DNA of 64,000 nucleotides from a phage. The notes beneath the pieces are model-generated. The model made no database searches. It worked only from the letters and a program-made list of their open reading frames with translations, and was not told where the DNA came from. Below are positions 28,020-46,846 of this stretch, piece by piece. Made by a program: the position numbers and the translations under genes. The DNA lies in the sequence record NC_101838.1, one strand, 5' to 3'. Position 1 is the first letter of the stretch; each line of letters opens with the position of its first letter.

Positions 28020-31000
28020 TGCCAATTGCAATGATTGATAACATCGTTGCTTCTGCAAGATCTTCAAGTTATGACTGGAACGCATCCAAGGCAGCTCTGG
28101 CTGACAGCCTGAACACTGTTACCACCAGAACTTTGGATAAGATTTTTGAGGGCAACAAATCTTACAGAAGTCAGCAAGATAGACAAAAGCTTCTCAGATC
28201 TTCTGCTGCACCTTGCTCGGTAGTGTATGGGAAGACACGCACATCCGGATTGCTTGCGTTTTTGGAGCAGGATAGCGACAGAACCCTCCATTGTGCTATT
28301 GTTCTTGCCAATCACCCTCTGGAAGGTGTAGAAGATATACTTATCGACGGTAATCCTATTTCCTCGTATGGAGATTTGGTATCGTGGGAGCTACATAACG
28401 ACAGAAAAACATCTGATCCTTTCATGGGCACACACTGCCCATCATGGTCACCGGACATGATAGGTAGAGGGATCAGTTGGCTACGTGCCAGTTTCAAGTT
28501 TGACCCTAACAAGTTTCCTTTTGGGTTGCCAAACGTTACACTCGTTAAGGTTGGTAAAAAATGCTATGATCCTCGTATCAGTAAAGAGGTGTACACCAAT
28601 AACGCAGCCTTGGTGATCCTAGACTATTTAAGAACGTACCTTAAATGTCCTGACGAAACCATCAACTGGGAGTCCTTTAAGGAGGCCGCCAACATATGCG
28701 ACGAGGCGGTAAAAAACGCTGACGGAACCAGTGAGCGACGTTACACCATTAACGGTGAGTTTGACATGGATGAGGCCCCAGCAAGCATTATGGCAGAAAT
28801 GCTGAAAGCTTGTGGTGCAGATCTCAGCTATGTAGCTGGTAAGTATGGTTTGCTGGTTGGTGCATACTATGGCCCGGCAACAATGACACTGAGTGAGGAT
28901 TGTGTCTGTGGTGAGGTCAAGATCTATCCGGAAGCCTCATTTGACAAAAGATCCAACACAATAACCGGCAGATTCACCAGTCCTACCAAAGGGTATTCTG
29001 AAACAGATTTTCCATCAGTGTTTGTCTCAGAGTGGATAGAGAAGGATGGAGAAAGAAAGATAATCGATATAGACTATCGCTTTGTTACCAGTCCTTATCA
29101 AGCTCAGCGTGTTTCTGCAATCTTCCTAAGACGTGCCAGAGCTGGCAGGATTATTGAAGTCACCTGCAATATGCGAGGTTTCAAATTTAAACCTGGTCGT
29201 TACGTTACAATGGACCTCCCAAGTATTGGTATAGTGGGCCAAGAAATGAGAGTTCTTGAATGGGAGTTTACCAAAAAGGGTGGTGTCAAGGTAAAACTTC
29301 GTCAAGATGCTAAAGAGTGGAATGATGCCACAGGACAACTTCCGGATTCTGGCGATGTAGATATTCCAATATCTCCATCTGGTGTAGCTCAACCGCAAAA
29401 CTTCAGATATTCCGTTCTCCAAGCTGGAGAAGTAACTCACGGTGTTTTGGCTTGGGACAACGTTGGGACCTACGCTCAAAATATTGTGCAGGTAAGAAAG
29501 AACGGAGAGATTGTTTGGACAGCACAAACAGTTGAGCAGTTTGTCCGAGTAGAAGGCTTGACCAAAGGGTCATACACAGCAACCGTGGTTGCAACATCTT
29601 ATAAAGGTGGCGTATCTCCGGAAGCATATTGTGAGTTCAACATTCAGGCACCTGAAGCTCCTGTTTCTGTAGAGGTTAAACAGGGATACTTTGCTATTAC
29701 CCTGATCCCGCACAGCAGAGACTTGGCTAGTGTAAGCACCCAGTACGACTTTTGGACATCTGGGATGACAAGATTGCCAGATACCAGTGATGCAACCGTT
29801 ACTTCAAAAGCCACTCGTATGGGTGTTGGTTCAACTTGGACATCTGAAGGTCTGCAGAACGATAAGATTTATTACTGGTATATCAGGACAACAAATGCTT
29901 TTGGTTCATCTGCTTTTGTGGAGTGTGCAGCCCACTGTTACACATCCATAGAAGATCTTATGCCACAGATTGATGCTGAGTTCAAAAAGACAGAGACTTA
30001 TAAAGAGCTTACCGCCAATCTTGATAATGCAGTCAAGGAAATGGATAAAAATGTTGGTGCAGTCAATGACCGTGTTACTAGCATTTTTGAAGAGCTTGGG
30101 GACACAATAGAGGGTGTTGTCAGAGAGACGACAGAAAAATTTACAGGGGTTAATGGAGAAATTTCTGCCCTTAACAGTAAGCTGGTAGCAGCTCAGCAAT
30201 CCTTTGACGATAAACTTGCAGCAGAGTCTGGTAGGCTTGGGTCACTAATCGAGACAACAAATAGATCAACCGTTGATCTTGTTAATCGTAAAACTCAAGC
30301 ATTGAGTGAGCAAATAACTGCAACTCAAGGTACTCTGCGGGAAGAGTTGAAGAACACTGAGAGCAAACTTAACTCCTCTATTCAAGAAACCAACAAGGCA
30401 ACAACCGATCTGCTAAATAAGACAACGGAAGCTATTAAGCAGGATCTGGTGGCAGCTACAGGGAAGATCACCAAGCTGGAAGATGATGTGCAGAAAGAGG
30501 TTGCCAATCTGCAAGCATCTATTCAAGAAACTAATAGTACAACAGTTGATCTTGTTAATAATACAGCCACAGCGATCCGTCAAGAACTTACCTCTGCAAA
30601 ACAAGAAATTGTTGACGAAATGGGTAATATTGATGAGCTCAGGGCTACAGTATCTAATACCTCTAAAGCTGTAACAACACTTGAGGGTAAAATAGATGCT
30701 CAGTGGGGAGCTAAGATTCAGGTAGACTCTGCAGGGAATAAGTATGTTGCAGGTATCCAGTTGGGGATGGAAGGGTCTGGGGGCCAAGTTCAATCCTACT
30801 TCATGGTTAGTGCAAACAATTTTGCGGTATACAACCCAGGAAATGGAACAGCAACCCTTGCTTTCGCAATCAAGAACAACCAAGCGTTCTTGAAAGACGC
30901 TTTTATAGAGAACGGGACGATTTCATCTGCCAAGATCGCACAAGAAATTTCGTCAAACAACTACGATGGCAACGGGTACCATAAATACGGTTGGTATATT

Positions 31001-31618
31001 AACAAGAACGGGCACGCCCAATTTATGGATGTGTGGGTGAAAGGCAACATCAACGCCAGTTCTGGTAACTTCACAGGGGCAGTTAACGCCACTAGTGGTA
31101 CCTTCCGTGGGGATGTTTATGCCAATAATGGTAGCTTTAGAGGCACCATAGATGCAACCGGAGGTACCTTCCGTGGTCGTGTAGAAGCTTCTGTTATCCG
31201 CGCTAACCAGTTCGAAGGTGCAATTGTTGCACACAGGACTTACGGGGATTGTGCTCCAGTATATAACTCCCAGCAAAGGGTTTGCCGTTGGAGGTGGAGA
31301 TACGTAGATAACGTTTCAGGTCAGGGTAAGAACGTAACATTCTTCTTTAAACTGAATGGTACTCTTGCCAGCTCCCAACTGAATGCATGGATAGCTGGTC
31401 ATCAGATCCTTGCTGGCAAGAAGTATTTTAACGACAACAACGGCATGTGTGCGGTAGGGATAACAGGTCTGGGTGAACAAACTATAGACATTGTTATCGA
31501 GATTTACACACCGTGGTCAACGTCGAGCGTGACAGGTGTCACAATCTCCTGTCCTACTGTGATAGTAAGTCGTTCAAACTCTAGCTTCCAGGGACCTTGG
31601 AACGAGTCTCACGACTAA
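28019..31618 (+). CDS. host specificity / central tail fiber protein, lambda gpJ-like
   Basis: 1199 aa; central coiled-coil region with repeated ...TTDLLNKT.../...TTVDLVNNT... blocks; C-terminal tandem GNFTGAVNATSGTFRGDVYANNGSFRGTIDATGGTFRG repeats; follows M/L/K-like genes. Confidence 0.55.
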   Translation: MPIAMIDNIVASARSSSYDWNASKAALADSLNTVTTRTLDKIFEGNKSYRSQQDRQKLLRSSAAPCSVVYGKTRTSGLLAFLEQDSDRTLHCAIVLANHPLEGVEDILIDGNPISSYGDLVSWELHNDRKTSDPFMGTHCPSWSPDMIGRGISWLRASFKFDPNKFPFGLPNVTLVKVGKKCYDPRISKEVYTNNAALVILDYLRTYLKCPDETINWESFKEAANICDEAVKNADGTSERRYTINGEFDMDEAPASIMAEMLKACGADLSYVAGKYGLLVGAYYGPATMTLSEDCVCGEVKIYPEASFDKRSNTITGRFTSPTKGYSETDFPSVFVSEWIEKDGERKIIDIDYRFVTSPYQAQRVSAIFLRRARAGRIIEVTCNMRGFKFKPGRYVTMDLPSIGIVGQEMRVLEWEFTKKGGVKVKLRQDAKEWNDATGQLPDSGDVDIPISPSGVAQPQNFRYSVLQAGEVTHGVLAWDNVGTYAQNIVQVRKNGEIVWTAQTVEQFVRVEGLTKGSYTATVVATSYKGGVSPEAYCEFNIQAPEAPVSVEVKQGYFAITLIPHSRDLASVSTQYDFWTSGMTRLPDTSDATVTSKATRMGVGSTWTSEGLQNDKIYYWYIRTTNAFGSSAFVECAAHCYTSIEDLMPQIDAEFKKTETYKELTANLDNAVKEMDKNVGAVNDRVTSIFEELGDTIEGVVRETTEKFTGVNGEISALNSKLVAAQQSFDDKLAAESGRLGSLIETTNRSTVDLVNRKTQALSEQITATQGTLREELKNTESKLNSSIQETNKATTDLLNKTTEAIKQDLVAATGKITKLEDDVQKEVANLQASIQETNSTTVDLVNNTATAIRQELTSAKQEIVDEMGNIDELRATVSNTSKAVTTLEGKIDAQWGAKIQVDSAGNKYVAGIQLGMEGSGGQVQSYFMVSANNFAVYNPGNGTATLAFAIKNNQAFLKDAFIENGTISSAKIAQEISSNNYDGNGYHKYGWYINKNGHAQFMDVWVKGNINASSGNFTGAVNATSGTFRGDVYANNGSFRGTIDATGGTFRGRVEASVIRANQFEGAIVAHRTYGDCAPVYNSQQRVCRWRWRYVDNVSGQGKNVTFFFKLNGTLASSQLNAWIAGHQILAGKKYFNDNNGMCAVGITGLGEQTIDIVIEIYTPWSTSSVTGVTISCPTVIVSRSNSSFQGPWNESHD

Positions 31619-31661: not shown

Positions 31662-31690
31662 TTGACTATTGTTACAAAATTTGGTAAAAT
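31662..31690 (+). promoter_or_regulatory. sigma70-like promoter (TTGACT-17-TGgTAAAAT)
   Basis: -35 31662-31667, -10 31685-31690; follows terminator after J-like gene. Confidence 0.55.
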
Positions 31691-33225: not shown

Positions 33226-33912
33226 ATGGCAGAGATTAAGTCGGATGTTAACCACATCCACACTCTGCCAGATTTTGTTCAGGGAGGTCTTGACTACCTA
33301 CCTGGAGATTTTCTGGCTGAGAAGGTTAATTTAGTCACATTCTTAACCGTATACCTTAAAAGGTTGGAGGATGTTGATAAGATGCTGGTAGGTTTGGCTG
33401 AAGGAAGATTGCTTAACAATGCCAGCGGAAGATACCTTGACGAAGTTGGTAATCAACTTGGTATTCTTAGGAATGGACTTTCAGATGCTGATTTTCGTGC
33501 CACACTAATTATTCAGCAGGCCGCAGCATCAAGGGGCGGGACTCGCGAAGATGTCATCTCCACCTTGCGACAATTGTTCGGAAGAGACAATTTCGATACG
33601 TGGAAAGGAGACAACTTCAGGTTTGACATAAATATTAGAAAAACTTGCTTTGACATATTGCAGTCTATCGATCAGATCTTAGATATGCTACCATTGCCTT
33701 GTCATTTGCGTCTTACAGAATCGCAAGGGCAAGCTTTTGGTTTTGAAGGGGACTCTACAGCTCTGGGCTTCGGATCAGTGTGGGAAGAAAACCAATTCGG
33801 AGTTGGTGGGCTGGCTACTTTGCTATATGTTCCTGACGTAAGACCTGATTGGGACACCACAACCATTTATTGTGAAAGTATTACAGTAAACGCAACTAGA
33901 CAGGAGGGTTAA
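33226..33912 (+). CDS. baseplate protein, gpI-like (putative)
   Basis: 228 aa directly after J-like gene as in P2/Mu baseplate operons. Confidence 0.35.
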   Translation: MAEIKSDVNHIHTLPDFVQGGLDYLPGDFLAEKVNLVTFLTVYLKRLEDVDKMLVGLAEGRLLNNASGRYLDEVGNQLGILRNGLSDADFRATLIIQQAAASRGGTREDVISTLRQLFGRDNFDTWKGDNFRFDINIRKTCFDILQSIDQILDMLPLPCHLRLTESQGQAFGFEGDSTALGFGSVWEENQFGVGGLATLLYVPDVRPDWDTTTIYCESITVNATRQEG

Positions 33913-35984
33913 TGGCAACAGCTGTTTTTAAACCTTACCGTGATTACTCTACAATGGCTGCACAGTTTCATTACCGCACAGTTCAGGATACTGCCGTTCC
34001 TGGTAGAGATTATGATCATGTTGAGGGCGATGTAACTATCCCAGTTGGGGCAACCAGTATTGAGATCCCAGTGGAAATTGTTGACAAATTACCCAACAGG
34101 TTGCCAAGAAGCTTCTTTATGGAGTTTTCATCAAAATCTCAAGGAGTGATGATTGGAACACAAAGGGCGAAATGTACAATAGTTTCAGATGAGAATCTTG
34201 ACAGGATATCTTGGGATACTGTTGAGGAGAGAATGTTTCACCCAAGATATTGGGTTACAACCACTCAGCAGACTGAAAGTACCTGTATTGTTGCAGATAA
34301 CAACTGTTGTATTAACCGTTTAGTGTCAAGAACATATGGAGGTATGGCTGGGTGCATTTGGGAAACAGTTGACAAGTATGACCATTTCGGTATTGGGTTT
34401 GATGATCACTATGAGATGAGAAACACCAAGCTTTGGTTCAGAATGTCAATAACCAACGCCAGCAACTTCTCCACTCCTGAAAAGATGATTATGACTGTAG
34501 ACCTTGTTGATGGCACAATCATCTATGTTCCTTTAGCTCAATATGCTGTCAGCATCTCAGAGGATAAAAATGTTGCAGAAATTCATATTGATTTTGAGGA
34601 CTGCGTCGGGATGGACCAGAACAACAACATGATGGGTGTTGATCCTCGGCAGGTGAGAAGGATTTTAATACCACTTATGCCTAAAGACTGGGTAAGTAAT
34701 AGCACAGATCCAAGAACGGAAAATGTAGAGTGTGAGTTGCGCCTAGATCTGCTTCAGCCAGACACAGGCTGGAAAATGATGCAACTTAATAATATCCAGG
34801 TGAGAGAGCACGACGTTGGGATCTGCACCGCATATGACGATATGTGGAACGTGTCCCCTTTAAGGGTGTTGAACAATATCAAGCGTCTGGGCTATACCGG
34901 AACCATAAACCATTATGTTGGTATGAGTCATTATTATGACTACACATGGTCAGGAACCCAATGGTCTATAAACAGAACAGGAGCGCTAAACGCTGCAGCT
35001 TATAAATGGCATGATGATTTTATGTACAATGCCAAACGACATAACTTCGACGTTATGCAATCTGTAAGTTTTGAGCTTTTCAGCGATGCCTGCCCGTTGG
35101 AATGGACCCAAAGAGACTGGAACGATAACTACGCTAAAACAGGGTATACACCTTGTAGCTACCTCCTGTCTCCAACCATTGAAGAGGGTATGAATTTCCT
35201 TACTGCAGTATTTAAGAATTTTGCATCAGCCGCTATGAGAAACAACCTGCCAGTGATTATGCAGGTTGGTGAACCGTGGTGGTGGTACAATACCGATACT
35301 CGTAGACCTTGTATTTATGATTACCCTACAAAACAGGCGTTTTATGATGAGACAGGCGAGTATGCATTAGATATTGGGACTATTGACGATCCTAAAACTG
35401 GCGGTGTTTACGATAAGTATGTAGCATTTTGTCGTGGTAAGCTTGGCGCTCGTATTGCTGCTATTTCAAAGGCAATAAAGGCACACGCTGCATCAGCTCA
35501 GATGACAGCTCTGCTGTTTTTCCCAACCATTATGGAAACCGAGCTTACGCAAAAGCTTAACCTTGCTGACCAATATAAAAAGGAAGCAGGTGCTCTTGAT
35601 TTCTTCTGCACCGAGTGCTACGATTGGGTGATGCAGGGAGGTATTGAAAAGGCAAAAGAGTCTGTAAACATACCTATCGTTAAGTTAGGTTGGCAACCGT
35701 CTGAAATACAATACCTTGCAGGGTTCGTTCCTAGTAAAGAGCTTGCTCCGGTATATGGTTACGACCCAACTAGGAATTACCAAGAATTTTTATGGAGATG
35801 TATTTGCGGAAACATGGCAACTATAGAGTATAGATACCCTGAGGTAAAACAGTATGTGTGGGCATACCCGCAAGTAATGTCTGACAGCATCACTGTTACC
35901 GCTAGAGATTCTACCGTGCTTCATATGGGGCAGGTTGCTCTGAAAGGGTATGTAGAAGATGTTGTCCCGCCAGACTTCTCATAA
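33912..35984 (+). CDS. structural protein with N-terminal Calx-beta-like domain
   Basis: 690 aa; N-terminal motif TAVPGRDYDHVEGDVTIPVGATSIEIPVEIVDK typical of Calx-beta domains. Confidence 0.4.
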   Translation: MATAVFKPYRDYSTMAAQFHYRTVQDTAVPGRDYDHVEGDVTIPVGATSIEIPVEIVDKLPNRLPRSFFMEFSSKSQGVMIGTQRAKCTIVSDENLDRISWDTVEERMFHPRYWVTTTQQTESTCIVADNNCCINRLVSRTYGGMAGCIWETVDKYDHFGIGFDDHYEMRNTKLWFRMSITNASNFSTPEKMIMTVDLVDGTIIYVPLAQYAVSISEDKNVAEIHIDFEDCVGMDQNNNMMGVDPRQVRRILIPLMPKDWVSNSTDPRTENVECELRLDLLQPDTGWKMMQLNNIQVREHDVGICTAYDDMWNVSPLRVLNNIKRLGYTGTINHYVGMSHYYDYTWSGTQWSINRTGALNAAAYKWHDDFMYNAKRHNFDVMQSVSFELFSDACPLEWTQRDWNDNYAKTGYTPCSYLLSPTIEEGMNFLTAVFKNFASAAMRNNLPVIMQVGEPWWWYNTDTRRPCIYDYPTKQAFYDETGEYALDIGTIDDPKTGGVYDKYVAFCRGKLGARIAAISKAIKAHAASAQMTALLFFPTIMETELTQKLNLADQYKKEAGALDFFCTECYDWVMQGGIEKAKESVNIPIVKLGWQPSEIQYLAGFVPSKELAPVYGYDPTRNYQEFLWRCICGNMATIEYRYPEVKQYVWAYPQVMSDSITVTARDSTVLHMGQVALKGYVEDVVPPDFS

Positions 35985-35996
35985 TCAGGAGATAAA

Positions 35997-37037
35997 ATGT
36001 CAAAACCTAGTTTTCCATTAGAGATTTGGGCAGAGGAGGATCAGGTTCTGCCTAACACCCACAGACAGAACAGGCTACGCCCGATTGATGATTTGTGGAG
36101 AAAAGGTTGGGATCTTGGTCAAAAGCCCTCATGTGAAGAACTTAACTATATTTTCAATATGCTCGGAACTTGGGCAAAATACATTGCTGACGAGCAGATC
36201 CCCGCTCAAGAAGGCCGTTATCTGGTACGTGATAATAACTTGAGTGATCTTTTGAACATTCCTGTTGCCCGTAGAAACCTTGGGATTATTACTAAGGAAG
36301 AGGCAGACGCCAGGTATGTAAAAGTTACAGGTGATACAATGACAGGCCCATTGGGTTTGCAACGTATCAACTTTAAAGCTGCAGAGACAGATAAGGCTTG
36401 GATAGAGACAACTATTGGCCCAGATAAGACAACTCTCGACTTTGGGTTAAGTGATAATACTGGTTCGTTTGATGATGGTGGTACATCTACGGTAGATGCG
36501 TTTCGTTGGAGATTCCAGCCAACTCAGCCGGATATTAATCCAGAGTTCACTTTGATGTACCTTAACGCGATCACGGCTAACCGTGCGCTGTTGAAAGTGG
36601 TAGGCAATGTTGAAGTTGTCGATAACATGAGGTGCAATAACCTTACTATCAGCAATACAGCAACATTCACCAACTGTAATGTGGCTAGTCAGTTGACGGC
36701 TGGGTCAGTATATGTTAATGGTGGTGCAAGTTGTGACAGTATGGTTGTAAGAAGCCAGCACTGTGTTGTCGGTAACAGAAATGTGGTGCGCTCCGTGAAT
36801 GGAGTGACGGCTAACGGTAACGGTGATGTAACGATCACTATCCCGCAGACAGGTGTGCAAGACATCAGAATCGGTGCAAGACTTGTGGACGGCGTTTCTG
36901 AGTCTCCAATCCGCAACGGCTACGTTGTCACAGGCTGGCATTTCGGTGACAAAAAAGAGATGCGTGGTTCAACTTACTGGGCAGGACCTTTACAAAAACT
37001 TGTAAACGGTCAATGGATCACTGTTAATTATGCATAG
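35997..37037 (+). CDS. tail fiber protein (paralog A)
   Basis: 346 aa; YVKVTGDTMTGPL fiber motif; C-terminus QKLVNGQWITVNYA shared with paralog at 38049; followed by tail fiber assembly chaperone; TAG stop. Confidence 0.6.
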   Translation: MSKPSFPLEIWAEEDQVLPNTHRQNRLRPIDDLWRKGWDLGQKPSCEELNYIFNMLGTWAKYIADEQIPAQEGRYLVRDNNLSDLLNIPVARRNLGIITKEEADARYVKVTGDTMTGPLGLQRINFKAAETDKAWIETTIGPDKTTLDFGLSDNTGSFDDGGTSTVDAFRWRFQPTQPDINPEFTLMYLNAITANRALLKVVGNVEVVDNMRCNNLTISNTATFTNCNVASQLTAGSVYVNGGASCDSMVVRSQHCVVGNRNVVRSVNGVTANGNGDVTITIPQTGVQDIRIGARLVDGVSESPIRNGYVVTGWHFGDKKEMRGSTYWAGPLQKLVNGQWITVNYA

Positions 37038-37051
37038 ATCGGAGGACTAGC

Positions 37052-37636
37052 ATGAAAATACTCCAAGAGTTTAAACTTTACCAACCGGGATCTGGCGAAT
37101 ACCACGCCAACAAGGAAACCAAAGAGCTGACCCCTCAAGAGGTTGAGGACTACACCGCATACACTGGGTATTTTTTACGTAATGATGATGGCGATTGGTA
37201 TGTGCAGTCAAGAACATTACGACAAGAAAATCCGGGTTGTATCTTCCTACTTGTTGACGAAAAGGGAATTCTTAAGACATCTACAGAAGAACCTGATGCC
37301 TTATGGCCTGCTCCAGGTCTTCGTGTGGTTATCGCCAAAAAAGAAGAGGTACCAGAAAACATTATGCTTCACCACGACGCTTTGCGTTTAGTTGGTGATG
37401 AATTTGTCACAGACAATGAATTCTTTGTTCAACAGGCAGAGGGTGTCATAGAGACAGAACTTGCTTGGGCTACTGCTAGAATTGGTGCCTATCAAGACAT
37501 GATTGACCTTGAATATGATCTTACTGATGACCAGAAACGTAACATCAGAGATTTGAAAATGTACAGGGTAAAACTTCTTGAAATAGATACATCTAAAGCC
37601 CCTGACATTTTCTTCCCGGAGCGACCTACCCTCTAA
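37052..37636 (+). CDS. tail fiber assembly chaperone (Tfa-like)
   Basis: 194 aa; C-terminal ...AWATARIGAYQDMIDLEYDLTDDQKRNIRDLKMYRVKLLEIDTSKAPDIFFPERP resembles Tfa family C-termini. Confidence 0.55.
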   Translation: MKILQEFKLYQPGSGEYHANKETKELTPQEVEDYTAYTGYFLRNDDGDWYVQSRTLRQENPGCIFLLVDEKGILKTSTEEPDALWPAPGLRVVIAKKEEVPENIMLHHDALRLVGDEFVTDNEFFVQQAEGVIETELAWATARIGAYQDMIDLEYDLTDDQKRNIRDLKMYRVKLLEIDTSKAPDIFFPERPTL

Positions 37637-37647
37637 GAGGAGGTGTT

Positions 37648-37962
37648 GTGGAGTTGGATTTGGCGGCATTGTACGGTATCTGCATGGGTACCGTTGTCCC
37701 GATCTGTGTATGGGCTTTCAACCAGTGGCACACCAAATGGAAAGGCATTTCCAAGAGGTTGGATGAGCTGGAGAAAGACCTCATCTTAGTGAAAAACAGT
37801 ATGGTTACAAAAGATAAACTTGATTCCGTTATAGAGACCCGGTTAAGCAAGCTAGAGGCCGATATTAACGACCTTAAGCAGGATGTCAGGACAGATGTCT
37901 CCGGCATCAGAGCCGATGTACAAAAGATTTTGCACATGCTCGTAGAGCATAGTAAAAGGTAA
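37648..37962 (+). CDS. membrane protein with coiled coil (holin- or i-spanin-like candidate)
   Basis: 104 aa; GTG start; N-terminal hydrophobic segment LAALYGICMGTVVPICVWAF followed by charged helical region. Confidence 0.35.
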   Translation: MELDLAALYGICMGTVVPICVWAFNQWHTKWKGISKRLDELEKDLILVKNSMVTKDKLDSVIETRLSKLEADINDLKQDVRTDVSGIRADVQKILHMLVEHSKR

Positions 37963-37972
37963 ACAAAGGTCA

Positions 37973-38004
37973 GAACGGAAAGGACTCCGTTCTTGCATTT
38001 TGTT
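37973..38004 (+). terminator. intrinsic terminator
   Basis: AGAACGG / CCGTTCT stem, 7-nt loop, TGCATTTTGTT tail. Confidence 0.55.
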
Positions 38005-38021
38005 CCCTAAAGTGTTAAAAT
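37993..38021 (+). promoter_or_regulatory. sigma70-like promoter (TTGCAT-17-TGtTAAAAT)
   Basis: -35 37993-37998, -10 38016-38021; follows terminator; upstream of fiber paralog B. Confidence 0.5.
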
Positions 38022-38048
38022 AGTCCTAAGGAATTTTCTCAGGAGAAC

Positions 38049-39095
38049 GTGATGACTAAACCAGTTATCCCTCTTGATATTTGGGCCAATCAGGATGTTG
38101 TGCTTGAAAATACGGGAGAGTTGAATAAGTCTCAACCAAAAAAAGAAGAGAGATTGAAAGGTTGGGATATGACACAAAGAGTGGCATGTGAAGTTGTTAA
38201 CTTTGAACTTCACATGCTTTCTGCGTGGTTAAAGCATTTAACAGAAGATGTTGTCCCGGGATGGGATAATAGATTCTTAAGGGTCACTAATAATCTAGCA
38301 GACGTTCCAGACAAAGCTGCTGCACGTCAAGTTCTCAATGTATACTCGCCTGAAGAAATGGACGATCTATATATTGACAAGTCTGGAGACATAATGACTC
38401 AGACTCAAACTTTAGGTCTTCAAAGAATCGAGTTTGCATCTGCGTCAACAGACAATGCGGCAATATATACCACCATAACTCCAGACAAGACGACGATGGA
38501 TTTCTGGATTATGGACAACATCGGTGGTGCTGACGGCACAGACCTTGATGATCCTTCTCACCAAATAGACGGGTTCCGTTGGAGATTTCAACCTTCTGGT
38601 GGGCAGCCTGTGTTTTCGGCTATGAAGCTCAATGCTATAACTGCCAACCGTGCAAGACTGGCTATCCAAGGGAATCTTGAATGCAACGATGCAAAAAGTT
38701 CCTCTGCAAATGCCAATGCGGTCACGATACCAAGAGCCACTATTAATGGACAACAATCCTGCGGAAGCGCTCAAATAGGTGGAAGAGTTGATTGTAACGA
38801 TGAAACCGTCAGGGGCCAATACGCAACAGTTGGTGGAAGAAACGTGGTCCGCAGGGTAAATGGTAACGGCGCAGACAGTAGTGGTAACCTTACTATTCCT
38901 ATGCCTAGCAGAGGGGTTGATGATGTAAGGATAGCAAACCGTTTCAAAACCACCTACAGAGAGTCAAGAGTCTACCCTGGGCATGTGATGTGCTCTGGTA
39001 ACTACGCTTATAAACACCCTTATCAAGGTGACTACTGGACAGGTGCTATCCAAAAACTTGTAAATGGTCAATGGATCACTATATCTTATGCTTAA
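38049..39095 (+). CDS. tail fiber protein (paralog B)
   Basis: 348 aa; alignable to 35997 ORF at N-terminus (PLDIWANQD versus PLEIWAEED), fiber motif SGDIMTQTQTLGLQRIEF, and identical C-terminal QKLVNGQWIT. Confidence 0.6.
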   Translation: MMTKPVIPLDIWANQDVVLENTGELNKSQPKKEERLKGWDMTQRVACEVVNFELHMLSAWLKHLTEDVVPGWDNRFLRVTNNLADVPDKAAARQVLNVYSPEEMDDLYIDKSGDIMTQTQTLGLQRIEFASASTDNAAIYTTITPDKTTMDFWIMDNIGGADGTDLDDPSHQIDGFRWRFQPSGGQPVFSAMKLNAITANRARLAIQGNLECNDAKSSSANANAVTIPRATINGQQSCGSAQIGGRVDCNDETVRGQYATVGGRNVVRRVNGNGADSSGNLTIPMPSRGVDDVRIANRFKTTYRESRVYPGHVMCSGNYAYKHPYQGDYWTGAIQKLVNGQWITISYA

Positions 39096-39106
39096 AAAGA
39101 GGGTAA

Positions 39107-39373
39107 ATGAAACTAACTCAGTTTTTATGGGGACTGGTTGCGGCATCTGATGACCCTACGAAAGTGTCCCAAACTAAGCTATGGTCGAACATAGGCATGG
39201 CGGTGATGACTGGGGTGTTTATTCATATGGGGTATAATGATACGCTTCCTGAATGGTATGCGTGGATATACGCGCCTTCAGTAGCTTGCCCCCAGCTTAT
39301 TAGCAAATTCATCTCGCTCCGGTGGGGTTGCCAGCACCCTGACCACGTTAAAAACGAAGAGCAAAAAGCTTAA
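39107..39373 (+). CDS. small hydrophobic protein (possible holin or fiber-associated membrane protein)
   Basis: 88 aa with hydrophobic stretches FLWGLVAA and IGMAVMTGVFIHMGY. Confidence 0.3.
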   Translation: MKLTQFLWGLVAASDDPTKVSQTKLWSNIGMAVMTGVFIHMGYNDTLPEWYAWIYAPSVACPQLISKFISLRWGCQHPDHVKNEEQKA

Positions 39374-39382
39374 GGAGAAATC

Positions 39383-41128
39383 ATGGCGCAAGACATGACA
39401 AGCTTTGAGCAGGCGGTAGATCAAGTAATTGTTGATTCTGAACGTTTGCACTTGGTTGTCAACGGTAACGCTGTGGATGAAGTTGTCGTAGAGGATGGAA
39501 CCACCATCCCTACGGTACGAAAAGCCATGCTTGACAACCTTTATTTTAAAACGCCACCGATCCCTTGGGCGTATGGTGCATCCACAACAGTTTTTAACCA
39601 GCTGTACGAGTTTAAAGGGGACACAGGCCCTCAGTGGTGGTACGCTCCCGCAGCATCAAAATCTAACCCGGTTAGAATGCCAGCAGATCCTTCACAATCT
39701 CCAAACTGGAGATTATATACCGACTCTGCAGTAATGGCAAAATACTACGCAAAACTTAACAGCCCGAGGTTCGAAGGTGACCCACGAGTACCTACACCTC
39801 CAATGGACGATAAGTCAGAGTCCATAGCAAACACAGAGTTTGTTGTTGACTATGTTGATAGCATATTTAAAGCCATGGAGGGGATGAAAGTTACTGTAGG
39901 GTCTTTGGTGGTAAAAGGTCTTACAGAACTCGCTAACACTATAGTTGGTGGCACCCTTACCTTACATGGACCTGTTAATGGGGCAGATTCTACTGCACGC
40001 TTTAGGAATCTAATCCTCACGGCAAATACTTCTACACTTACTTTTGCGTGGAGCGATCCTAAGCATGCAGACTGGAGAAGTACAGAGCTGCAACCTCATG
40101 AAGTGTCCACCCACAGGGTTATAGCTGACACTATAACTTCTGGGAAACCAGTGGCTAATAATAACGATGTGCATTTTGATGGTCTGGGTAATAACTTTTT
40201 TGACTACGTGTACATTCGTGGTAATGCCATGAAGGCAGCAACCGAACCGACATTGCAGGTCGATGGGACCACCAGGGTTAAGAACCTTGAGGTAACAGGT
40301 ACCGTTACAGGGATAACATACTCTGTCGATGGCACCATGATCTACCCTAGCTATATTGAAAGCACGGGTGATGCATTGATAAATGGCGATTTGGAGGTTG
40401 GCGGGTCTGTAGTTATTCGAGGTACAGCCTCTATCCAAAATATAGCTCTGAATACTCTAAGAGTCAATGAGCGTGCAACTTTTGAAGGAGAAGGGCTTAC
40501 AGCCAATAAAGGTACAATTACCGAGCTAACCACCACCACTTTAACTGCAACAACTGCAAACTCTGAAAACTGCAACATTACCAGAAACTTGCAGGTAAAT
40601 GGAGATGTTAGTTTAAACGCCGCAGGGACTGGCACCACCTACCTTCACAACCTTGAAATATCTGGCACAGTGACCGGGTGGCTGCCAGACTTCTCTAATG
40701 TCAACTTTGTCTGTAATGGCATTAACTCCAGTGGTAAGATAACCACCTCTCAAGAAATTGAGGCGGGTAAAACCATTACTGCCCCTACTTTCCACACAGG
40801 AAAGGTAGATTTTGACTTAGAGGAGGTTGACGCGTCCAGTGGGACATGGACACCTAACGGGCAGGCCAGCATGTATGTTGTCCACGCGAAAGGGGATTTT
40901 ACAATAGGACAGTGGCCTGGGACATCAGCGGAAGATAAACCTTATCCATTCACTGCAGTTATCTATGTCATTCAGGATGCTGTAGGTCACAACGTGACTT
41001 TGCACGATAAGTATGCTATCCTGTCGGCAACACCTGTTATTAACAACAAGGCTAACAGTGTTACCTTGCTGCAATTAACGTATTGTGGTGTTGGTGATAT
41101 TGTAGACGTAGTAATTGCACAACGTTAA
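39383..41128 (+). CDS. tail fiber protein (beta-helix-like repeats)
   Basis: 581 aa; repeated Thr/Gly/Asn-rich segments (LEVTGTVTG, LEISGTVTG, VNGDVSLN); AGGAGA RBS; followed by terminator. Confidence 0.5.
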   Translation: MAQDMTSFEQAVDQVIVDSERLHLVVNGNAVDEVVVEDGTTIPTVRKAMLDNLYFKTPPIPWAYGASTTVFNQLYEFKGDTGPQWWYAPAASKSNPVRMPADPSQSPNWRLYTDSAVMAKYYAKLNSPRFEGDPRVPTPPMDDKSESIANTEFVVDYVDSIFKAMEGMKVTVGSLVVKGLTELANTIVGGTLTLHGPVNGADSTARFRNLILTANTSTLTFAWSDPKHADWRSTELQPHEVSTHRVIADTITSGKPVANNNDVHFDGLGNNFFDYVYIRGNAMKAATEPTLQVDGTTRVKNLEVTGTVTGITYSVDGTMIYPSYIESTGDALINGDLEVGGSVVIRGTASIQNIALNTLRVNERATFEGEGLTANKGTITELTTTTLTATTANSENCNITRNLQVNGDVSLNAAGTGTTYLHNLEISGTVTGWLPDFSNVNFVCNGINSSGKITTSQEIEAGKTITAPTFHTGKVDFDLEEVDASSGTWTPNGQASMYVVHAKGDFTIGQWPGTSAEDKPYPFTAVIYVIQDAVGHNVTLHDKYAILSATPVINNKANSVTLLQLTYCGVGDIVDVVIAQR

Positions 41129-41135
41129 TATATCT

Positions 41136-41162
41136 AACCGCTCCTGACGGGGCGGTTTTCTT
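41136..41162 (+). terminator. intrinsic terminator (probably leaky; no promoter before next gene)
   Basis: AACCGCTCC / GGGGCGGTT stem, TGAC loop, TTTTCTT tail. Confidence 0.55.
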
Positions 41163-41176
41163 ACCTGGAGAACACA

Positions 41177-41422
41177 ATGCTTCCAATCCCTTTGCTAAAA
41201 CTTGGTCGTCATTTCCTCGATAAGAGGGGTGGAATTAAGGAACTTGCTGTTCTGTCATACCCAATAGACAACAGTGATGGTACAAGCAACACAGTATCCT
41301 ATGTAAATAGCTTAGCTATACTTTTTGATGATGGTCAGCTTAATATTACTGGCTATAATAGGTTCGGAGAGTGTCGGACTGGAGATCTTGATACAATAAA
41401 CTATCCTAATGAGGCAGCTTAG
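41177..41422 (+). CDS. 81-codon ORF in frame with downstream giant fiber ORF (probable N-terminal segment)
   Basis: ATG 41177 with GGAG RBS; ends at TAG 41420-41422; same frame as 41567-46804 with no other stop in between. Confidence 0.45.
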   Translation: MLPIPLLKLGRHFLDKRGGIKELAVLSYPIDNSDGTSNTVSYVNSLAILFDDGQLNITGYNRFGECRTGDLDTINYPNEAA

Positions 41423-41566
41423 AACGTAGACCATGTTTGGAGAGCTGACCGTGCATTTGTAATCCGCACATTCGATAATAAATTTTTCTATATTGGTTGC
41501 ACAGCTGGTCTTATCGGATCGGAGGCAGCAGGTGGAAACGATGTTTGTGTCAGAGAGTGGACACCT

Positions 41567-44500
41567 TTGCCGGAACAGATCGTAACAGGGTTGCATTTGG
41601 ACACCCATCCTGAGAGACTTGTTGAAGTAATGGGTGGCGTAAACAATACAGTGTGGGTAATTGCTGCACCAGAGGCTGATGGTATGCTTCACCTGTACGG
41701 CTCTGGCAATAATACTTACGGCTCTCTTCATGTTGACAAAAGTCAACACGCTACTCCAGTTAAGATCGGTGAAACATCTGAAAGTCCAGAGACAGGTCCT
41801 TGGAAAAATCCAAGAATTAATTGTGAAGTTCATGACAACTCGGTTATTTTTGGTGGTCCTAACGGATTCTGGATTGCAGGTTACGATTTCTTAAGAAATA
41901 ACAGCAAAAACACACTAGTTTATCCAGCCGAGCATGTGACTCTTGACCAGTTTAAAGGCATCCCGGTGGGCGAGACATGGAAAGGGTTCATGTGTGGACC
42001 TAATGGTGCAATTATAGCCACAGAAAGGATGCACAAACCTGATGACCAACAGCTTGTTAACGTATTCTACGGGCAAGACGTCTGGGGAGATGACACATGG
42101 CGTTCCTTAAATATCACCTACACCCATGAGGTGATAATGGCTCGTGGATACGGCACAAGTGGCATTTTCTTCAATAATGGCACCAAACAGTATCGTGGCT
42201 TCTCTCGCAATCTGTGCAATGATATTGGTGCACAATCTGCAAACAACAGTCCTAGGGCTAATTTTATTCACTATCAGGCTCTGGCTACGGCTAAATACGT
42301 CGAGCAACGGATGCCAGTAAGCTGGACAGAAAGTGTTTATTTCCAGGGTATCCACAGAGAAGGTTTCTTAGGGACCTTTACTGTTGTTAATGGCAAACTT
42401 TGGTGGTCAGGCATCCCAAGGGGAAGTTTTGCAGGCTCTAATAACCTGTTTGGCGGCAGACTTAATAGTCAGGGGTTCACAGAGGTTCCTGAGAATTGGT
42501 ATAAAAATGTCCCAGTAGACAGTTGGGGCGTTGATGATATTTTCGACGTTAATGGTGTTAGTAGTGTTAGCAATATCTACATTGGTGACACGGTCAAGAT
42601 GAAATTGAAGCCTCAGCCAGAGGGGGCTACGTTCATTATTGACAAGATTGAGTTGGTAAATGCTGCAGGTACGGTTGTTACAGATGCAAATTACCAATTC
42701 TCCACCAACTGGAACCACGGTGGGGCCAACGAAGTTGTTGTTACCCAGTATAACAGAAATGTTAACAGACGTGGCCTGTACTCTGTAAAAATAACCTATC
42801 ATGACAAGCATGGCACAGGCAGAACCCATACGACAAGAACTTTGAACTGGAACACCATAGTTCCTGCGTATCCGTCCAACGGCAAGTGGCATACTGTCGG
42901 TAGAAACAAACAGTTCCATGTCAACGATACTGTATACTTCGGGCTTAACGCAGCTCAACCTGTTGTAGAAGGCGATACATCGTATATGGTACGACTCCAT
43001 AGAATGGATGCCGGGTCTGTAACCTACGATGTGACTCAAGAGATCTACGATCAGAGACGTACCACGTATGACAATGTTGTGAAAACACAAGCCTTGTGGG
43101 AGTTCAACCCTAACGGCAGAGGCGGTAAAATGTTGCAGGTCAACGAGCAAAACGGAACATCGTTGACTGTCCATGAACATCCAGATCCTTGGCCTGATCC
43201 TGGAAAACCTAACTCTGGGGCTCGTACACTGAAAATTGTCAGCCATGATGCAGGATATTTCGGAATACGCTGGGAAGCTACAGTAAGATATGTCGACGGG
43301 ACAACAAACAACATAGGGATTACACTTGGCGGCACTAGTGAAGATAACTCGCTGAAAATTGCCTACACGCCCAGAGGTATCTCTATTGATAATATGGATG
43401 TTGTTCGCAATGGTTACGGCGATGTGAATGTCAAAGTTACTCTTGGCGAACATCTTGGTGGGGAAAGGATCATCATGTATGCCTTTGATCATGATCCACG
43501 CACCAATGGAACTTATGCAAATCAGGCATGGAGTTACCTGATAAATGCACCTGAGCCGAATACTAAAGAGTTCTACTATGGTATGAAGCGAGATGTGTGC
43601 AAGAAAACAGGAACACATGACTGGATTGCTATCTGCGTTAAAGATGAGCGCACAGCTTGGGATGAACCTGTTAACAGATGGTTCATAGGTATTCCTACCA
43701 GAAGTGATAAGTATGTCGCAGAATATATTGTATGCATGGGTGGTACCAACCTGAACATGTGTTGGAACGAGGATGCAAACAAATACTCTGATTATGACTA
43801 TATGAGGGATTACTCTTGTAATCAGTGGTTTAACCAATCAACAGGATACCCTCCACGTCAGGCGAGAGTAAACCCTGCAATCTTCACAGATACGCAGGTT
43901 TTCTTGACAAAACAGGCCAACGAGGTTCAGACCTTCAAGAATAAATACGATCCTAACAAGTGGTTCTACAACTGTTACGGCGCATTTTTCTGGGGACCTG
44001 GTGAGTTACCTGGTGGAGGATCTTGCTTGAATGAGGCAACTTACGCCAGTGACTACATCATGGGGCAGGTCAAGAAGTATAAGATAATCCCCGGTCCTGA
44101 GACTCTGGGCAATGCCGTTGACCCTTATATCATCATGACTGCACTGAGATCAAACATGGACGGGACATCCATGTCTATGCAAATTCCGGTAACAAACGGG
44201 TACAAACGTGTTGTGATGATCATTAAGTGCGACTTAATAGGTAAACAAGTTCTTGCAGAAAACGGGACATCCACACATCCTTTTGAGATTGCTCTGCACT
44301 ATCAGTTTGCTGACTCGCCTTTTGCAGGTGATAAGAGAATATCTGATACAGATACACAGCGTTGTAAGAAAGTATTGTTGGGTGCAGGTTGGTGGTGGTA
44401 TGAGTTTGATTTAACAGACAAATTCACCGACACATCTAAAGTTGTAACAGGACTTCGTCTAGACCTTGGCGAGAACATGCACAAAGCTGTTTGTGATGGC

Positions 44501-46804
44501 ACCTATGGTGACCCTACAATATACCTAAAATATATTTCTTTTGAGCATCCGGAAGATGTTGTCTATGGTCCAAAACTGAGATTGTTTGGCAGTTGGATTG
44601 CAAAAGATAGGGTAGGCATGGGTAAGAAGGTAAGAGGGTTCTTGGTTGATGCAGGAACAGAAGACATGCTGGTTAATGCAGTATGGCCTGAATTACCTGG
44701 GACTCAGTGGGACAACTCAGCCAAATCTATAAACTGGTTTAACATTCATAGGGCCATGTGGACCACTAACTGCTACTTGTGGAGAGAGCTTAACGATCAG
44801 GCCTTTGGATTCAGCGATGGTAGAAGGATGGCGATCATTTGCTGGACAACACTGCAAAGATGTTATGACCATGACTATGAGATTGGGGGCAGGGCATGGA
44901 AAAATATCAGAGATAGAATCATAACCAATTTTGCAGACGACAACGGTGGTGGAGCACATAACTTTGGCACAAGCCGACTCATCCATTTGAACGGATCCTC
45001 AGCCTACAAGAAAGAAGGTTACTCTGGGTCTATGATCGAGTGGGGTCTGGTGAAAGATGCTCGTGTATTGATGGGCCAGCAACTTGCTGCTGCAATAGGT
45101 CCTAGTGCAGTGCAGTCTGCTAAACCAGCGTGGTTCGATATCCCATTATGGTCCTCTGGAACACCAGGGGCTGCTGCAATCAACCCTACCACTGGGGATC
45201 TGGAAATCTCCTGGGAAGACCTGAAGCAGGTCGGTGGCTGGGATAAGACCGGGTACCAGGTGCAGTGGTGGAGGGCTGACGGATCTTTAGCCGCTGATGA
45301 GTTTGTTAAGGACAATTTCTACACTATGTCCTCTGCAAAAGCACAGGAATTGTTCGGTCAGGCAACTCCGTCAACGATCACCATGTCTATGTGCTGTAAA
45401 GACAACAGGACTGGAGCTTTGGGGCCAAGGGTTGCTAAAGTTTTCTCAGGTATTAAATGGAATCTACCTGTCCAAAGTATTTCATGGAAGCAAATAGGTG
45501 ATAACAAGCTGCTGGTTACCCCTGCCTGTCAGTTCAACGCAACTCTTAACGTTGATCCTGCTGTTGCGGCAAACTCAGCTAAAGCTTCTGACTTCTCTGT
45601 GTCTAACACTGCTATGGCAGATGTGAGGAAGATTGACACGCTGAACGCCAGAATTACCTGTAAAAACACTTATGGCACATTCCAAATCATCAACAACTTC
45701 ACAGATGCTGATTCTAAGGTAGTGAGGACAGCAAGCCAGACTCTGAGTTTAGGAACTCTGGCCTATGCGGCCCTGATCACCGAGCAGTCGGCAACACTCC
45801 AAGGAGGTGGTGTAGGCAAGTCCATTGCAACACCTGTGTGGAAGCCAAATGAGTGGGTTGTGTTTGATTTGACTGTGGACTTCTCCAGCGATAATAACTG
45901 GACATGGGTAAGGAATTGTTTGTCACAATTGATGGGCGGTCCAAGCTCCGTTAGTGATAGTCACGACTCTACTGACCCGAGTGTGTTCCAGGTAGGTAAA
46001 ACTCACCCAGAGACTGGAGAAACGTTGCCTGACAGGAAGTATGCGTTGGTTTGCATCTCTTACGGGAAGGCAGATGTCACATTCTCAGGGACACACACTT
46101 ATAACGGAACTTACAACTTCTCAAGGAAGTATAGTCTCAAAGCAGGGAACATTATAGACGAGGTCGGTGTGCTGTATAATCCGGGCAACGGCATAGGGAT
46201 TGTGGGCGGTAAACTGCAGATGCAGGAACCTTCTATCACCCCTTCCAACGTATCCGGGATTAGAAAGACTTGGGAAAGTAGTAATACCAACATTGCAACA
46301 GTGGATGCCACCACAGGGCTGGTAACATTTAAAGCTACTGGGAATGTCACCATAAAGTTTGTAGTTAGAGATGATGCAGGCCGCAAAACGTCTTCAACAT
46401 CGTTTACTGTCAGACAGATGGCACCTCAGTGGTTTATTTGGGAAGGAAATCCTCTTGACGGGGCTTACCCTAGACCTGCAGGAACGTCCAATATGAGGGT
46501 CTTTACCGGTCCGGTCATGAACAATCCGACCACAACCACCAACCCTACATTTTTTGGTGCTTACATACCTGAAATTATTGGCCTACCAAGGAACCAGATA
46601 CAACTGCTTTTCGGAGCAGGTGTTGATGGTCTAGCCACTTTTGGGTACAGTGACAACATTGATGCAGCCAGAAGCTCGGGTTGGATTGGATTTAAGTTTC
46701 AGTGGAACCCTGGTGGTAGAACATTAGGTGTTGCAAGCATAGGTGTTATGCTACCTGGTAACCAGCAATACCATCTCGAAGCTTATACAAACTTCCCTAG
46801 TTAA
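41567..46804 (+). CDS. giant tail fiber/host-range protein (1745 aa as annotated from a TTG start)
   Basis: Long ORF with Gly/Asn/Trp-rich repeats; no in-frame ATG or GTG between upstream TAG and annotated TTG start; followed by bidirectional terminator. Confidence 0.55.
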   Translation: MPEQIVTGLHLDTHPERLVEVMGGVNNTVWVIAAPEADGMLHLYGSGNNTYGSLHVDKSQHATPVKIGETSESPETGPWKNPRINCEVHDNSVIFGGPNGFWIAGYDFLRNNSKNTLVYPAEHVTLDQFKGIPVGETWKGFMCGPNGAIIATERMHKPDDQQLVNVFYGQDVWGDDTWRSLNITYTHEVIMARGYGTSGIFFNNGTKQYRGFSRNLCNDIGAQSANNSPRANFIHYQALATAKYVEQRMPVSWTESVYFQGIHREGFLGTFTVVNGKLWWSGIPRGSFAGSNNLFGGRLNSQGFTEVPENWYKNVPVDSWGVDDIFDVNGVSSVSNIYIGDTVKMKLKPQPEGATFIIDKIELVNAAGTVVTDANYQFSTNWNHGGANEVVVTQYNRNVNRRGLYSVKITYHDKHGTGRTHTTRTLNWNTIVPAYPSNGKWHTVGRNKQFHVNDTVYFGLNAAQPVVEGDTSYMVRLHRMDAGSVTYDVTQEIYDQRRTTYDNVVKTQALWEFNPNGRGGKMLQVNEQNGTSLTVHEHPDPWPDPGKPNSGARTLKIVSHDAGYFGIRWEATVRYVDGTTNNIGITLGGTSEDNSLKIAYTPRGISIDNMDVVRNGYGDVNVKVTLGEHLGGERIIMYAFDHDPRTNGTYANQAWSYLINAPEPNTKEFYYGMKRDVCKKTGTHDWIAICVKDERTAWDEPVNRWFIGIPTRSDKYVAEYIVCMGGTNLNMCWNEDANKYSDYDYMRDYSCNQWFNQSTGYPPRQARVNPAIFTDTQVFLTKQANEVQTFKNKYDPNKWFYNCYGAFFWGPGELPGGGSCLNEATYASDYIMGQVKKYKIIPGPETLGNAVDPYIIMTALRSNMDGTSMSMQIPVTNGYKRVVMIIKCDLIGKQVLAENGTSTHPFEIALHYQFADSPFAGDKRISDTDTQRCKKVLLGAGWWWYEFDLTDKFTDTSKVVTGLRLDLGENMHKAVCDGTYGDPTIYLKYISFEHPEDVVYGPKLRLFGSWIAKDRVGMGKKVRGFLVDAGTEDMLVNAVWPELPGTQWDNSAKSINWFNIHRAMWTTNCYLWRELNDQAFGFSDGRRMAIICWTTLQRCYDHDYEIGGRAWKNIRDRIITNFADDNGGGAHNFGTSRLIHLNGSSAYKKEGYSGSMIEWGLVKDARVLMGQQLAAAIGPSAVQSAKPAWFDIPLWSSGTPGAAAINPTTGDLEISWEDLKQVGGWDKTGYQVQWWRADGSLAADEFVKDNFYTMSSAKAQELFGQATPSTITMSMCCKDNRTGALGPRVAKVFSGIKWNLPVQSISWKQIGDNKLLVTPACQFNATLNVDPAVAANSAKASDFSVSNTAMADVRKIDTLNARITCKNTYGTFQIINNFTDADSKVVRTASQTLSLGTLAYAALITEQSATLQGGGVGKSIATPVWKPNEWVVFDLTVDFSSDNNWTWVRNCLSQLMGGPSSVSDSHDSTDPSVFQVGKTHPETGETLPDRKYALVCISYGKADVTFSGTHTYNGTYNFSRKYSLKAGNIIDEVGVLYNPGNGIGIVGGKLQMQEPSITPSNVSGIRKTWESSNTNIATVDATTGLVTFKATGNVTIKFVVRDDAGRKTSSTSFTVRQMAPQWFIWEGNPLDGAYPRPAGTSNMRVFTGPVMNNPTTTTNPTFFGAYIPEIIGLPRNQIQLLFGAGVDGLATFGYSDNIDAARSSGWIGFKFQWNPGGRTLGVASIGVMLPGNQQYHLEAYTNFPS

Positions 46805-46816
46805 CAGGAGGCAAAT

Positions 46817-46846
46817 AAAAAGGGGCCAGACGGCCCCTTTCTTTTT
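46817..46846. terminator. bidirectional intrinsic terminator between convergent late and early blocks
   Basis: AAAGGGGCC / GGCCCCTTT stem with AGAC loop, A-tract upstream and T-tract downstream. Confidence 0.75.

Follow-up and report, generated by a model that had tools for sequence, protein, structure and literature searches.

The phage stretch analysed here, 64,000 nt of record NC_101838.1 (the window), contains at positions 33912-46804 a run of tail-fibre genes ending in the gene for a giant immunoglobulin (Ig)-like protein. This region is very probably the distal end of a conserved late operon for baseplate and tail fibres, that of the rV5-like E. coli myoviruses (Vequintavirus), and in this phage the giant gene is interrupted by an in-frame amber codon. 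An initial annotation had read the region as an unusually large fibre arsenal forming a multivalent host-range apparatus. Every gene that it listed is present, but several of its descriptions proved inaccurate. The multi-fibre finding is right in outline and not new, because the literature on these phages already describes them as multivalent; every element of it has been reported for the rV5-like/phi92-like phages, and it is real but ordinary. New are only the amber codon in the giant gene and the finding that relatives have repeatedly and independently lost this gene's function, together a modest observation.

Over its full length the region is 99.6% identical to Escherichia phage WalterGehring (Bas51), and about 100 other Vequintavirus isolates align at 95-98% identity with like gene order. 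The matching phage records number 125, of which 107 span 80% or more of the region, with few exceptions at 90-99% identity; all of them belong to Vequintavirus. Sixteen matches to the rV5-type region (MG0656xx) are named "Campylobacter phage" with Campylobacter jejuni as host, the two listed being 95.7% identical; these are probably mislabelled or contaminant assemblies. Gene sizes and order follow rV5 genes 34 to 27 (690, 346, 194, 104, 347, 88, 581 and 1878 aa; rV5 Table S3). The rV5 locus (genes 27-34; Kropinski et al. 2013, PMC3606486) and BASEL isolates such as WalterGehring share with the window the same genes, order and sizes (the giant protein being 1875-1878 aa) at 95-99.6% nucleotide identity, as well as the late-promoter motif and terminators, and differ from it in having TGG where the window has TAG at codon 82 of the gp27 ortholog. 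The nearest relative changes along the window, from JeffSchatz for 10-34 kb to PMBT16 for 40-64 kb, so the source is a mosaic isolate. Upstream of the region, the J-like central/lateral fibre (28019-31618; Phage_Tail_Tip, Ig_J) has 1199 aa, as against 1279 aa in rV5 and WalterGehring, and is a different allele of a variable fibre gene. The three large upstream fibre proteins gave no LamG domain in Pfam at E<=0.001.

The giant gene (41177-46804, + strand), the ortholog of rV5 gp27, was delimited by alignment to relatives. It had been described as encoding a roughly 1800-aa giant fibre; a gene of 1875 codons does start at 41177, but an in-frame TAG at 41420-41422 (+ strand), at a codon that reads TGG in relatives (W82*), interrupts it; the initial annotation does not mention this stop. 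It has the same length as bas51_0041 of WalterGehring, with 7 nt differences in 5628 nt and no indels. Codon 82 is TGG in WalterGehring and in rV5_ev168, and the six further base differences to WalterGehring lie elsewhere in the gene. The surrounding 61-mer matches 62 phage records, every one of which (62/62) differs from the window by one base, and a 31-mer containing the TAG had no exact match in viral, metagenome or genome contig collections. Other than at ordinary gene boundaries, a scan of the coding strand found no further in-frame stop with a long open segment on either side. Most simply, the codon is read as a recent null mutation private to this genome, and the giant protein, the largest component, probably contributes nothing in the NC_101838.1 phage.

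Database searches with the giant protein returned short fragments and never a full-length match, which apparently stems from the database itself or from its pre-filter, and no frequency of truncated alleles can be derived from them. They did expose four other broken alleles: i) a TGA at codon 558, private to the Logan assembly SRR22133733 (contig L003, 8672-8674); ii) a TAG replacing Gln at codon 883 in a diverged lineage, present in at least two samples, ERR15872107 and SRR23255629 (contigs L004 and L005, 9647-9649); iii) a frameshift beside a G6 run in SRR27718206 (L009, about 6995-7020); and iv) in the RefSeq genome APECc02 (L008, 759-3431), indels and the deletion of ~2.9 kb, which leave three small open reading frames (ORFs), the deletion junction being unique to APECc02. 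The single related locus found in a scan of IMG/VR has an intact giant gene. Phage records with the central part of the gene number 117, and the gene's ratio of nonsynonymous to synonymous divergence (dN/dS) is 0.06-0.07 against three relatives, indicating strong purifying selection. The gene is kept by selection in the lineage overall and is dispensable for propagation; because four independent disruptions have arisen despite this selection, the giant protein seems to be an accessory component subject to sporadic loss.

If the TAG at 41420-41422 were a minority variant, or an error of sequencing or assembly, the giant protein would be intact and the rV5-type fibre set complete. This would fit a single-base change amid near-identical relatives (one of the seven differences in the gene) and a TAG that occurs in no other record searched. 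Substitution errors are, however, rare in consensus assemblies. Moreover, the gene is disrupted in four other genomes, so null alleles of it are tolerated and do occur, and an error is unlikely.

Suppression of the amber codon by a host suppressor (for example supE44 in hosts of the DH5alpha/C600 type) or by a phage tRNA would instead yield full-length protein at a reduced level. The base following the codon is an A, a context that favours amber suppression, and some close relatives, PMBT16 and CM1, were isolated on DH5alpha. On the other side, the window contains no tRNA gene, and neither the tRNA cluster of the closest relative nor the set of six rV5 tRNAs (PMC3606486) includes one with a CUA anticodon; a phage-borne suppressor was rejected on these grounds. 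Programmed read-through was likewise rejected: the stop is not conserved, all 62 matching records differing at the site, and since the stops lie at different codons in different genomes (82, 558 and 883), codon 82 is not a conserved recoding site. Expression by suppression is accordingly regarded as very improbable, and a private null mutation stays the preferred reading. As a separate observation, the WalterGehring tRNA cluster (L007, 7896-7994, just beyond the left end of the window) includes a 99-nt gene annotated as tRNA-Lys, for which ARAGORN returned tRNA-??? with a four-base anticodon (atcc); it may be intron-bearing or aberrant.

With the window, five independent lesions are known in the giant gene, and it could be a hotspot of reversible or recurrent loss, with natural or laboratory populations cycling between virion states with and without an accessory adhesin rather than undergoing mere laboratory decay. 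This idea is speculative and held to be improbable. If true, the cycling would be a cheap form of bet-hedging on host range or niche, for instance mucus or surface adherence against burst size.

Three further observations concern the giant gene. Its synonymous divergence from L003 is ~0.33, compared with 0.07-0.12 in the neighbouring fibre genes (35997-41128); because it exceeds that of its neighbours, a separately exchanged, mosaic allele is suggested. Relative to WalterGehring, a G1451C change results from a double substitution in one codon (GGG to TGT; 45527 and 45529). A 476-aa antisense ORF inside the gene (42407-43837, - strand) was rejected as a real gene because the frame is interrupted in L003, L004 and L006; it is a chance open frame.

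The first gene of the region (33912-35984, + strand) encodes a 690-aa lateral fibre or tailspike, the ortholog of rV5 gp34, identified through Pfam, a PDB match and mass spectrometry (MS) of rV5 virions. The initial annotation called it a Calx-beta protein. Its N-terminal part does give a borderline match to Calx-beta (PF03160; 26.1 bits against a cut-off of 27, E 9e-6), but the main body consists of NCTSP_N (PF23844, 48.5 bits) and TIM-barrel_NCTSP (PF23845, 269.8 bits; cut-off 27) and resembles N4 gp65. These are the domains of the non-contractile sheath protein gp65 of phage N4, and a PDB match is the N4-type Gp64 chain 9lc0 (E 2e-24). Residues 337-341 form the motif GMSHY (34920-34934, + strand), which occurs nowhere else in the six frames of the window and is reported as the invariant signature of fibres binding the N4 glycan receptor (NGR) (2026 preprint 10.64898/2026.04.02.716166). 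In rV5 virions gp34 was detected by MS with 4 peptides and 10.3% coverage (PMC3606486). Vequintavirinae need host wecB and nfrB and not the remaining enterobacterial common antigen pathway (PMC8669472). By analogy, the 690-aa protein is a putative binder and deacetylase of the NGR glycan. It shares TIM-barrel_NCTSP, NCTSP_N and GMSHY with N4 gp65/gp64, and the hosts of its relatives show the same wecB/nfrB dependence as for N4 (PMC8669472); in N4, however, the domain is located on a podovirus tail sheath, whereas here it would be carried on a myovirus baseplate fibre with an additional Calx-beta-like N-domain.

Two short tail fibre genes follow. Paralog 1 (35997-37037, + strand; 346 aa, ortholog of rV5 gp33) was identified through PDB and PHROG 4465. 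Paralog 2 (38052-39095, + strand; 347 aa, ortholog of rV5 gp30), which also belongs to PHROG 4465, has no chaperone gene of its own; its likely start is the ATG at 38052, as annotated in relatives, and not the GTG at 38049, which would give 348 aa. The proposed paralogy of these two proteins of about 347 aa is borne out by 42% identity (E 5e-94). The shared C-terminal end (QKLVNGQWIT) is also real: the pattern YW.G..QKLVNGQWIT..YA is encoded by a 62-nt DNA repeat at 82% identity. The further description, of common ends around a diverged middle, is inaccurate. Divergence extends along the whole length and the N-terminus is just 30-50% identical; windowed identity peaks at alignment columns 121-150 (70%) and over the final 17 columns, and is lowest in columns 211-255 (20%) and 301-330 (27%), close to the tip. 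Recent gene conversion between the paralogs was rejected, as the only sizeable DNA repeats are the 62-nt 3' end and a 28-nt internal stretch, both 82% identical.

In a PDB search residues 1-108 of paralog 1 matched the phiTE short tail fibre (9cuy_c, E 1.4e-19) and residues 286-343 matched residues 440-501 of the Mu tail fibre protein S (5yvq, E 1.7e-6). By homology, the N-terminus is predicted to be a baseplate-wedge attachment domain and the C-terminus a Mu gpS-like tip. The N-terminus of the phiTE short tail fibre is attached to the baseplate wedge in the cryo-electron microscopy (cryo-EM) structure (PMC11972413), and the RBPseg study observed the short-fibre class TC1, with a Mu-like C-terminus, in the maps of Bas49 and Bas54 (PMC12143355).

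A tail fibre assembly chaperone of the Tfa type (37052-37636, + strand; 194 aa, ortholog of rV5 gp32) starts 15 nt past the stop of the paralog 1 gene. It matches Caudo_TAP (PF02413) with 45.8 bits against a cut-off of 22.1, and PHROG 136 with E 2e-36, in line with the claim that a Tfa-like chaperone follows the first paralog only. The layout of a paralog pair with Tfa after the first copy is the same in L003, L004 and L006, and both the pair (42.3% identity) and the chaperone were already noted in the rV5 paper (PMC3606486). In L004, a diverged lineage with a giant protein 47% identical to that of the window, paralog 1 is 75% identical and paralog 2 is 45% identical. Because L004 keeps the layout with these unequal identities, the duplication is old and paralog 2 is the faster-evolving copy. 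The arrangement resembles gpS/gpU of Mu (PDB 5YVQ) in the ~60 C-terminal residues of the short fibre and in the Caudo_TAP gene directly downstream. Unlike Mu, there is one chaperone gene for two paralogous fibres, the N-terminal attachment is different, and no switching of the invertible G-segment type is present.

The retention of two short fibres could mean that they bind two lipopolysaccharide (LPS) chemotypes as alternative terminal receptors, a true bivalency at the irreversible step in place of redundant or structural roles. This reading was proposed in the rV5 paper (PMC3606486). It would agree with paralogs only 42% identical that are least alike near the tip (columns 211-255 and 301-330), with the retention of the two copies in the same order in a lineage with a giant protein only 47% identical, and with short-fibre dN/dS values of 0.01 and 0.11. 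It remains tentative, however: neither paralog is allelically variable within the genus, and all tested members need the same LPS-core glucose (PMC8594841). The paralogs might instead sit at two baseplate positions, or co-assemble.

The 581-aa lateral fibre (39383-41128, + strand) is the ortholog of rV5 gp28 and belongs to the phiTE gp241 family, as indicated by PDB, by Pfam on orthologs and by Foldseek. Residues 8-325 match 9cuy_g, the phiTE "putative tail fiber protein" (E 7e-77), and orthologs 99% identical to the protein carry PF26208/PF26209, Phage_phiTE_241_N/_C, in precomputed annotations. By analogy with phiTE, the N-terminus would anchor in the baseplate fibre network and the C-terminus would form a head domain. 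An AlphaFold2 model from a 25-sequence alignment has a mean predicted local distance difference test score (pLDDT) of 52 and is confident at residues 480-580 only; its best Foldseek match is the phiTE baseplate, the expected anchor, and the others are weak spike matches. The protein had been called beta-helix-like. That description agrees with the published class TC8, which has an N-terminal helical bundle, two beta-helices and a C-terminal head and was seen in the Bas49 and Bas54 maps (PMC12143355), but it is weakly supported by the present data: the bactofilin match (PF04519; E 0.014, 16 bits) lies below the cut-off of 27.9, and the periodic strands of the model are short, at 324-374, with pLDDT <70. 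A beta-helix is plausible; calling a beta-helix or a glycosidase from structure was rejected, the pLDDT 52 model and the Foldseek matches being insufficient.

In the phiTE baseplate (PDB 9CUY/9MJN; PMC11972413) the attachment domains homologous to short-fibre residues 1-108 and to residues 8-325 of the 581-aa protein belong to short and long tail fibres that were modelled bound to the wedge and fibre network. The distal parts differ: the phiTE short fibre has 554 aa with a coiled coil and an Ig-rich head, and the long fibre has 793 aa. PhiTE is flagellotropic, unlike the rV5-type phage described here.

The initial annotation proposed that several of these genes are separate transcription units with their own terminators and promoters. 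This holds for two internal hairpins and one late-promoter motif, but nothing beyond these was found: generic scans compared with shuffled sequence were not enriched, either for sigma-70 promoters (40 against 33.4) or for terminators (15 against 13.4). Of the scans, only that for the family-specific motif was informative. This late-promoter-like motif, TGKTAAAATA, has 5 matches against 0.42 expected, all on the + strand (7779, 11300, 26411, 31682 and 38013). The match at 31682 is just upstream of the baseplate-J gene, and that at 38013-38022 (TGTTAAAATA, + strand), the rV5 "P030", precedes the second short-fibre gene by 30 nt. Preceding it, a terminator-like hairpin at 37972-37993 (+ strand; -12.8 kcal/mol, z -2.64), followed by UGCAUUUUGUU, closes the unit begun at the late promoter upstream of the baseplate-J gene. 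The second internal hairpin (41136-41157, + strand; -14.9 kcal/mol, z -3.9), followed by UUUUCUUA, is an intrinsic terminator between the 581-aa and giant genes, the rV5 "t028", and the TGKTAAAATA scan found no late-promoter motif between it and the giant gene. A strong bidirectional terminator at 46819-46840 (-16.6 kcal/mol, z -4.2; rV5 t026/t027) marks the end of the late structural module. Table S4 of the rV5 paper lists P036, P030, t028 and t026/t027, which coincide with these motifs and hairpins (PMC3606486). The other gene junctions are of 12 nt or less. The region is thus two late units plus the giant gene, and because the latter follows a terminator and lacks its own late-promoter motif, its expression is probably low and due to read-through.

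Two small conserved proteins are also encoded within the fibre operon, each behind a short-fibre gene or gene pair, and both are probably membrane proteins. The first (37648-37962, + strand; 104 aa, rV5 gp31, annotated "membrane protein"; PHROG 5345, unknown function) has an N-terminal hydrophobic segment (maximum Kyte-Doolittle 19-residue mean 1.91, residues 5-23) followed by a coiled-coil-like stretch, and is conserved in L004 at 50% identity. The second (39107-39373, + strand; 88 aa, rV5 gp29) is a putative membrane protein of PHROG 1322 ("membrane protein", E 1e-32). Homology between the two was rejected (E 12). The L004 contig also encodes, a few kb downstream of its fibre module (15786-16649, - strand), a protein 565 aa or more in length that carries the trimeric autotransporter domain YadA_anchor, an unusual phage cargo.

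A mechanism of adsorption can be proposed from these assignments, taking receptors from genetics on relatives, namely the NGR glycan and, as terminal receptor, the LPS outer-core glucose (PMC8594841, PMC8669472), and virion locations from cryo-EM and MS on relatives. The 690-aa GMSHY TIM-barrel fibre would bind, and probably deacetylate, the wecB/nfrB-dependent NGR glycan as the primary, reversible receptor. The short fibres, presumably attached to the baseplate wedge by their N-terminal domains, would then contact the LPS outer core, the terminal receptor, with their Mu-gpS-like tips. The single Tfa-type chaperone is assumed to fold these tips, possibly those of both paralogs because the extreme C-terminus is common to both. 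The 581-aa phiTE-gp241-like fibre may be part of the proximal fibre network seen by cryo-EM, and the 1875-codon Ig-like protein, encoded behind a terminator, would be a weakly expressed accessory adhesin or fibre. Given the nonsense codon at position 82, the phage on a non-suppressing host would therefore lack the giant protein and rely on the remaining fibres.

Several points weigh against this picture. The receptor roles are transferred by analogy from relatives. The amber codon might stem from a sequencing error or be suppressed in a supE host, and a chance restart is conceivable at the ATG at 42137 (codon 321), which follows GAGGTGATA, none earlier being convincing. Both AlphaFold monomer models are poor, with pLDDT 52 for the 581-aa protein and 40 for the giant N-terminus, the latter built from a three-sequence alignment and unusable; for that reason they do not establish a fold for the middle of the 581-aa protein or for the giant N-terminus. 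The MS evidence for gp27 in rV5 virions consists of three low-quality, non-tryptic peptides (PMC3606486), and cryo-EM of Bas49 and Bas54 resolved 3 of 9 annotated fibres, the giant protein not being among them (PMC12143355).

The last two points also favour a view in which the giant protein is not a receptor-binding fibre at all and is instead a Hoc-like decoration or adhesin elsewhere on the virion, or a non-virion protein, so that the fibre count would be overstated by one. Its only firm domain is the Big_2/intimin-like Ig near the C-terminus (PF02368, 34.9-38.6 bits against a cut-off of 22.8; intimin matches in PDB are weak, E 0.006), residues 1593-1760 match PHROG 215 ("head and packaging; structural protein with Ig domain"), and the protein is repeatedly lost with no apparent lethality. 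Against this, the gene ends the tail-fibre operon, residues 41-194 match a PHROG "tail protein" family (E 6e-26), and the BASEL authors annotate the WalterGehring protein (bas51_0041) as a "lateral tail fiber protein with intimin domain". The same part of the protein, the region of the amber codon, gives a sub-threshold RCC1-like signal in Pfam (residues 45-199). Strong purifying selection fits a role in host interaction, though it does not locate the protein. A non-fibre role is on balance doubtful, and an accessory adhesin or fibre is the tentatively preferred assignment.

As to the apparatus as a whole, the description "multivalent" is the accepted one for Vequintavirinae and phi92-like phages, which carry three lateral-fibre sets and have been called a "nanosized Swiss army knife" (PMC8594841; phi92 cryo-EM, PMC13450770). 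Published genetics nevertheless points to conserved, not variable, receptors and tempers the multivalent host-range reading: rV5-like phages are described as effectively monovalent on K-12 (PMC8594841). Nor is the arsenal unusually large. It is normal for the family, nine fibre proteins being annotated in Bas49/Bas54 (PMC12143355). Phi92 likewise has several co-expressed fibre or spike types on one baseplate (PMC8594841; PMC13450770); its gp142 is a homolog of the NGR-type deacetylase fibre and its gp147 is a Mu/Milano-like, downward-pointing short fibre (PMC13450770). The phi92-like phages, however, have a single short-fibre gene together with endosialidase and colanidase spikes, which are absent here, whereas the rV5 group has a duplicated short fibre and the giant Ig-like protein.

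The discovery value of the region is small, since the apparatus, the paralog pair, Tfa and the NGR-type fibre are published and partly resolved by cryo-EM. For host-range prediction, phage therapy cocktails and fibre engineering, the relevant point is that the largest fibre-like gene of this phage is a null allele and that the same gene is sporadically lost in relatives. The amber phage, compared with wild-type phages, provides a ready genetic handle on the function of the uncharacterised 200-kDa Ig-like protein.

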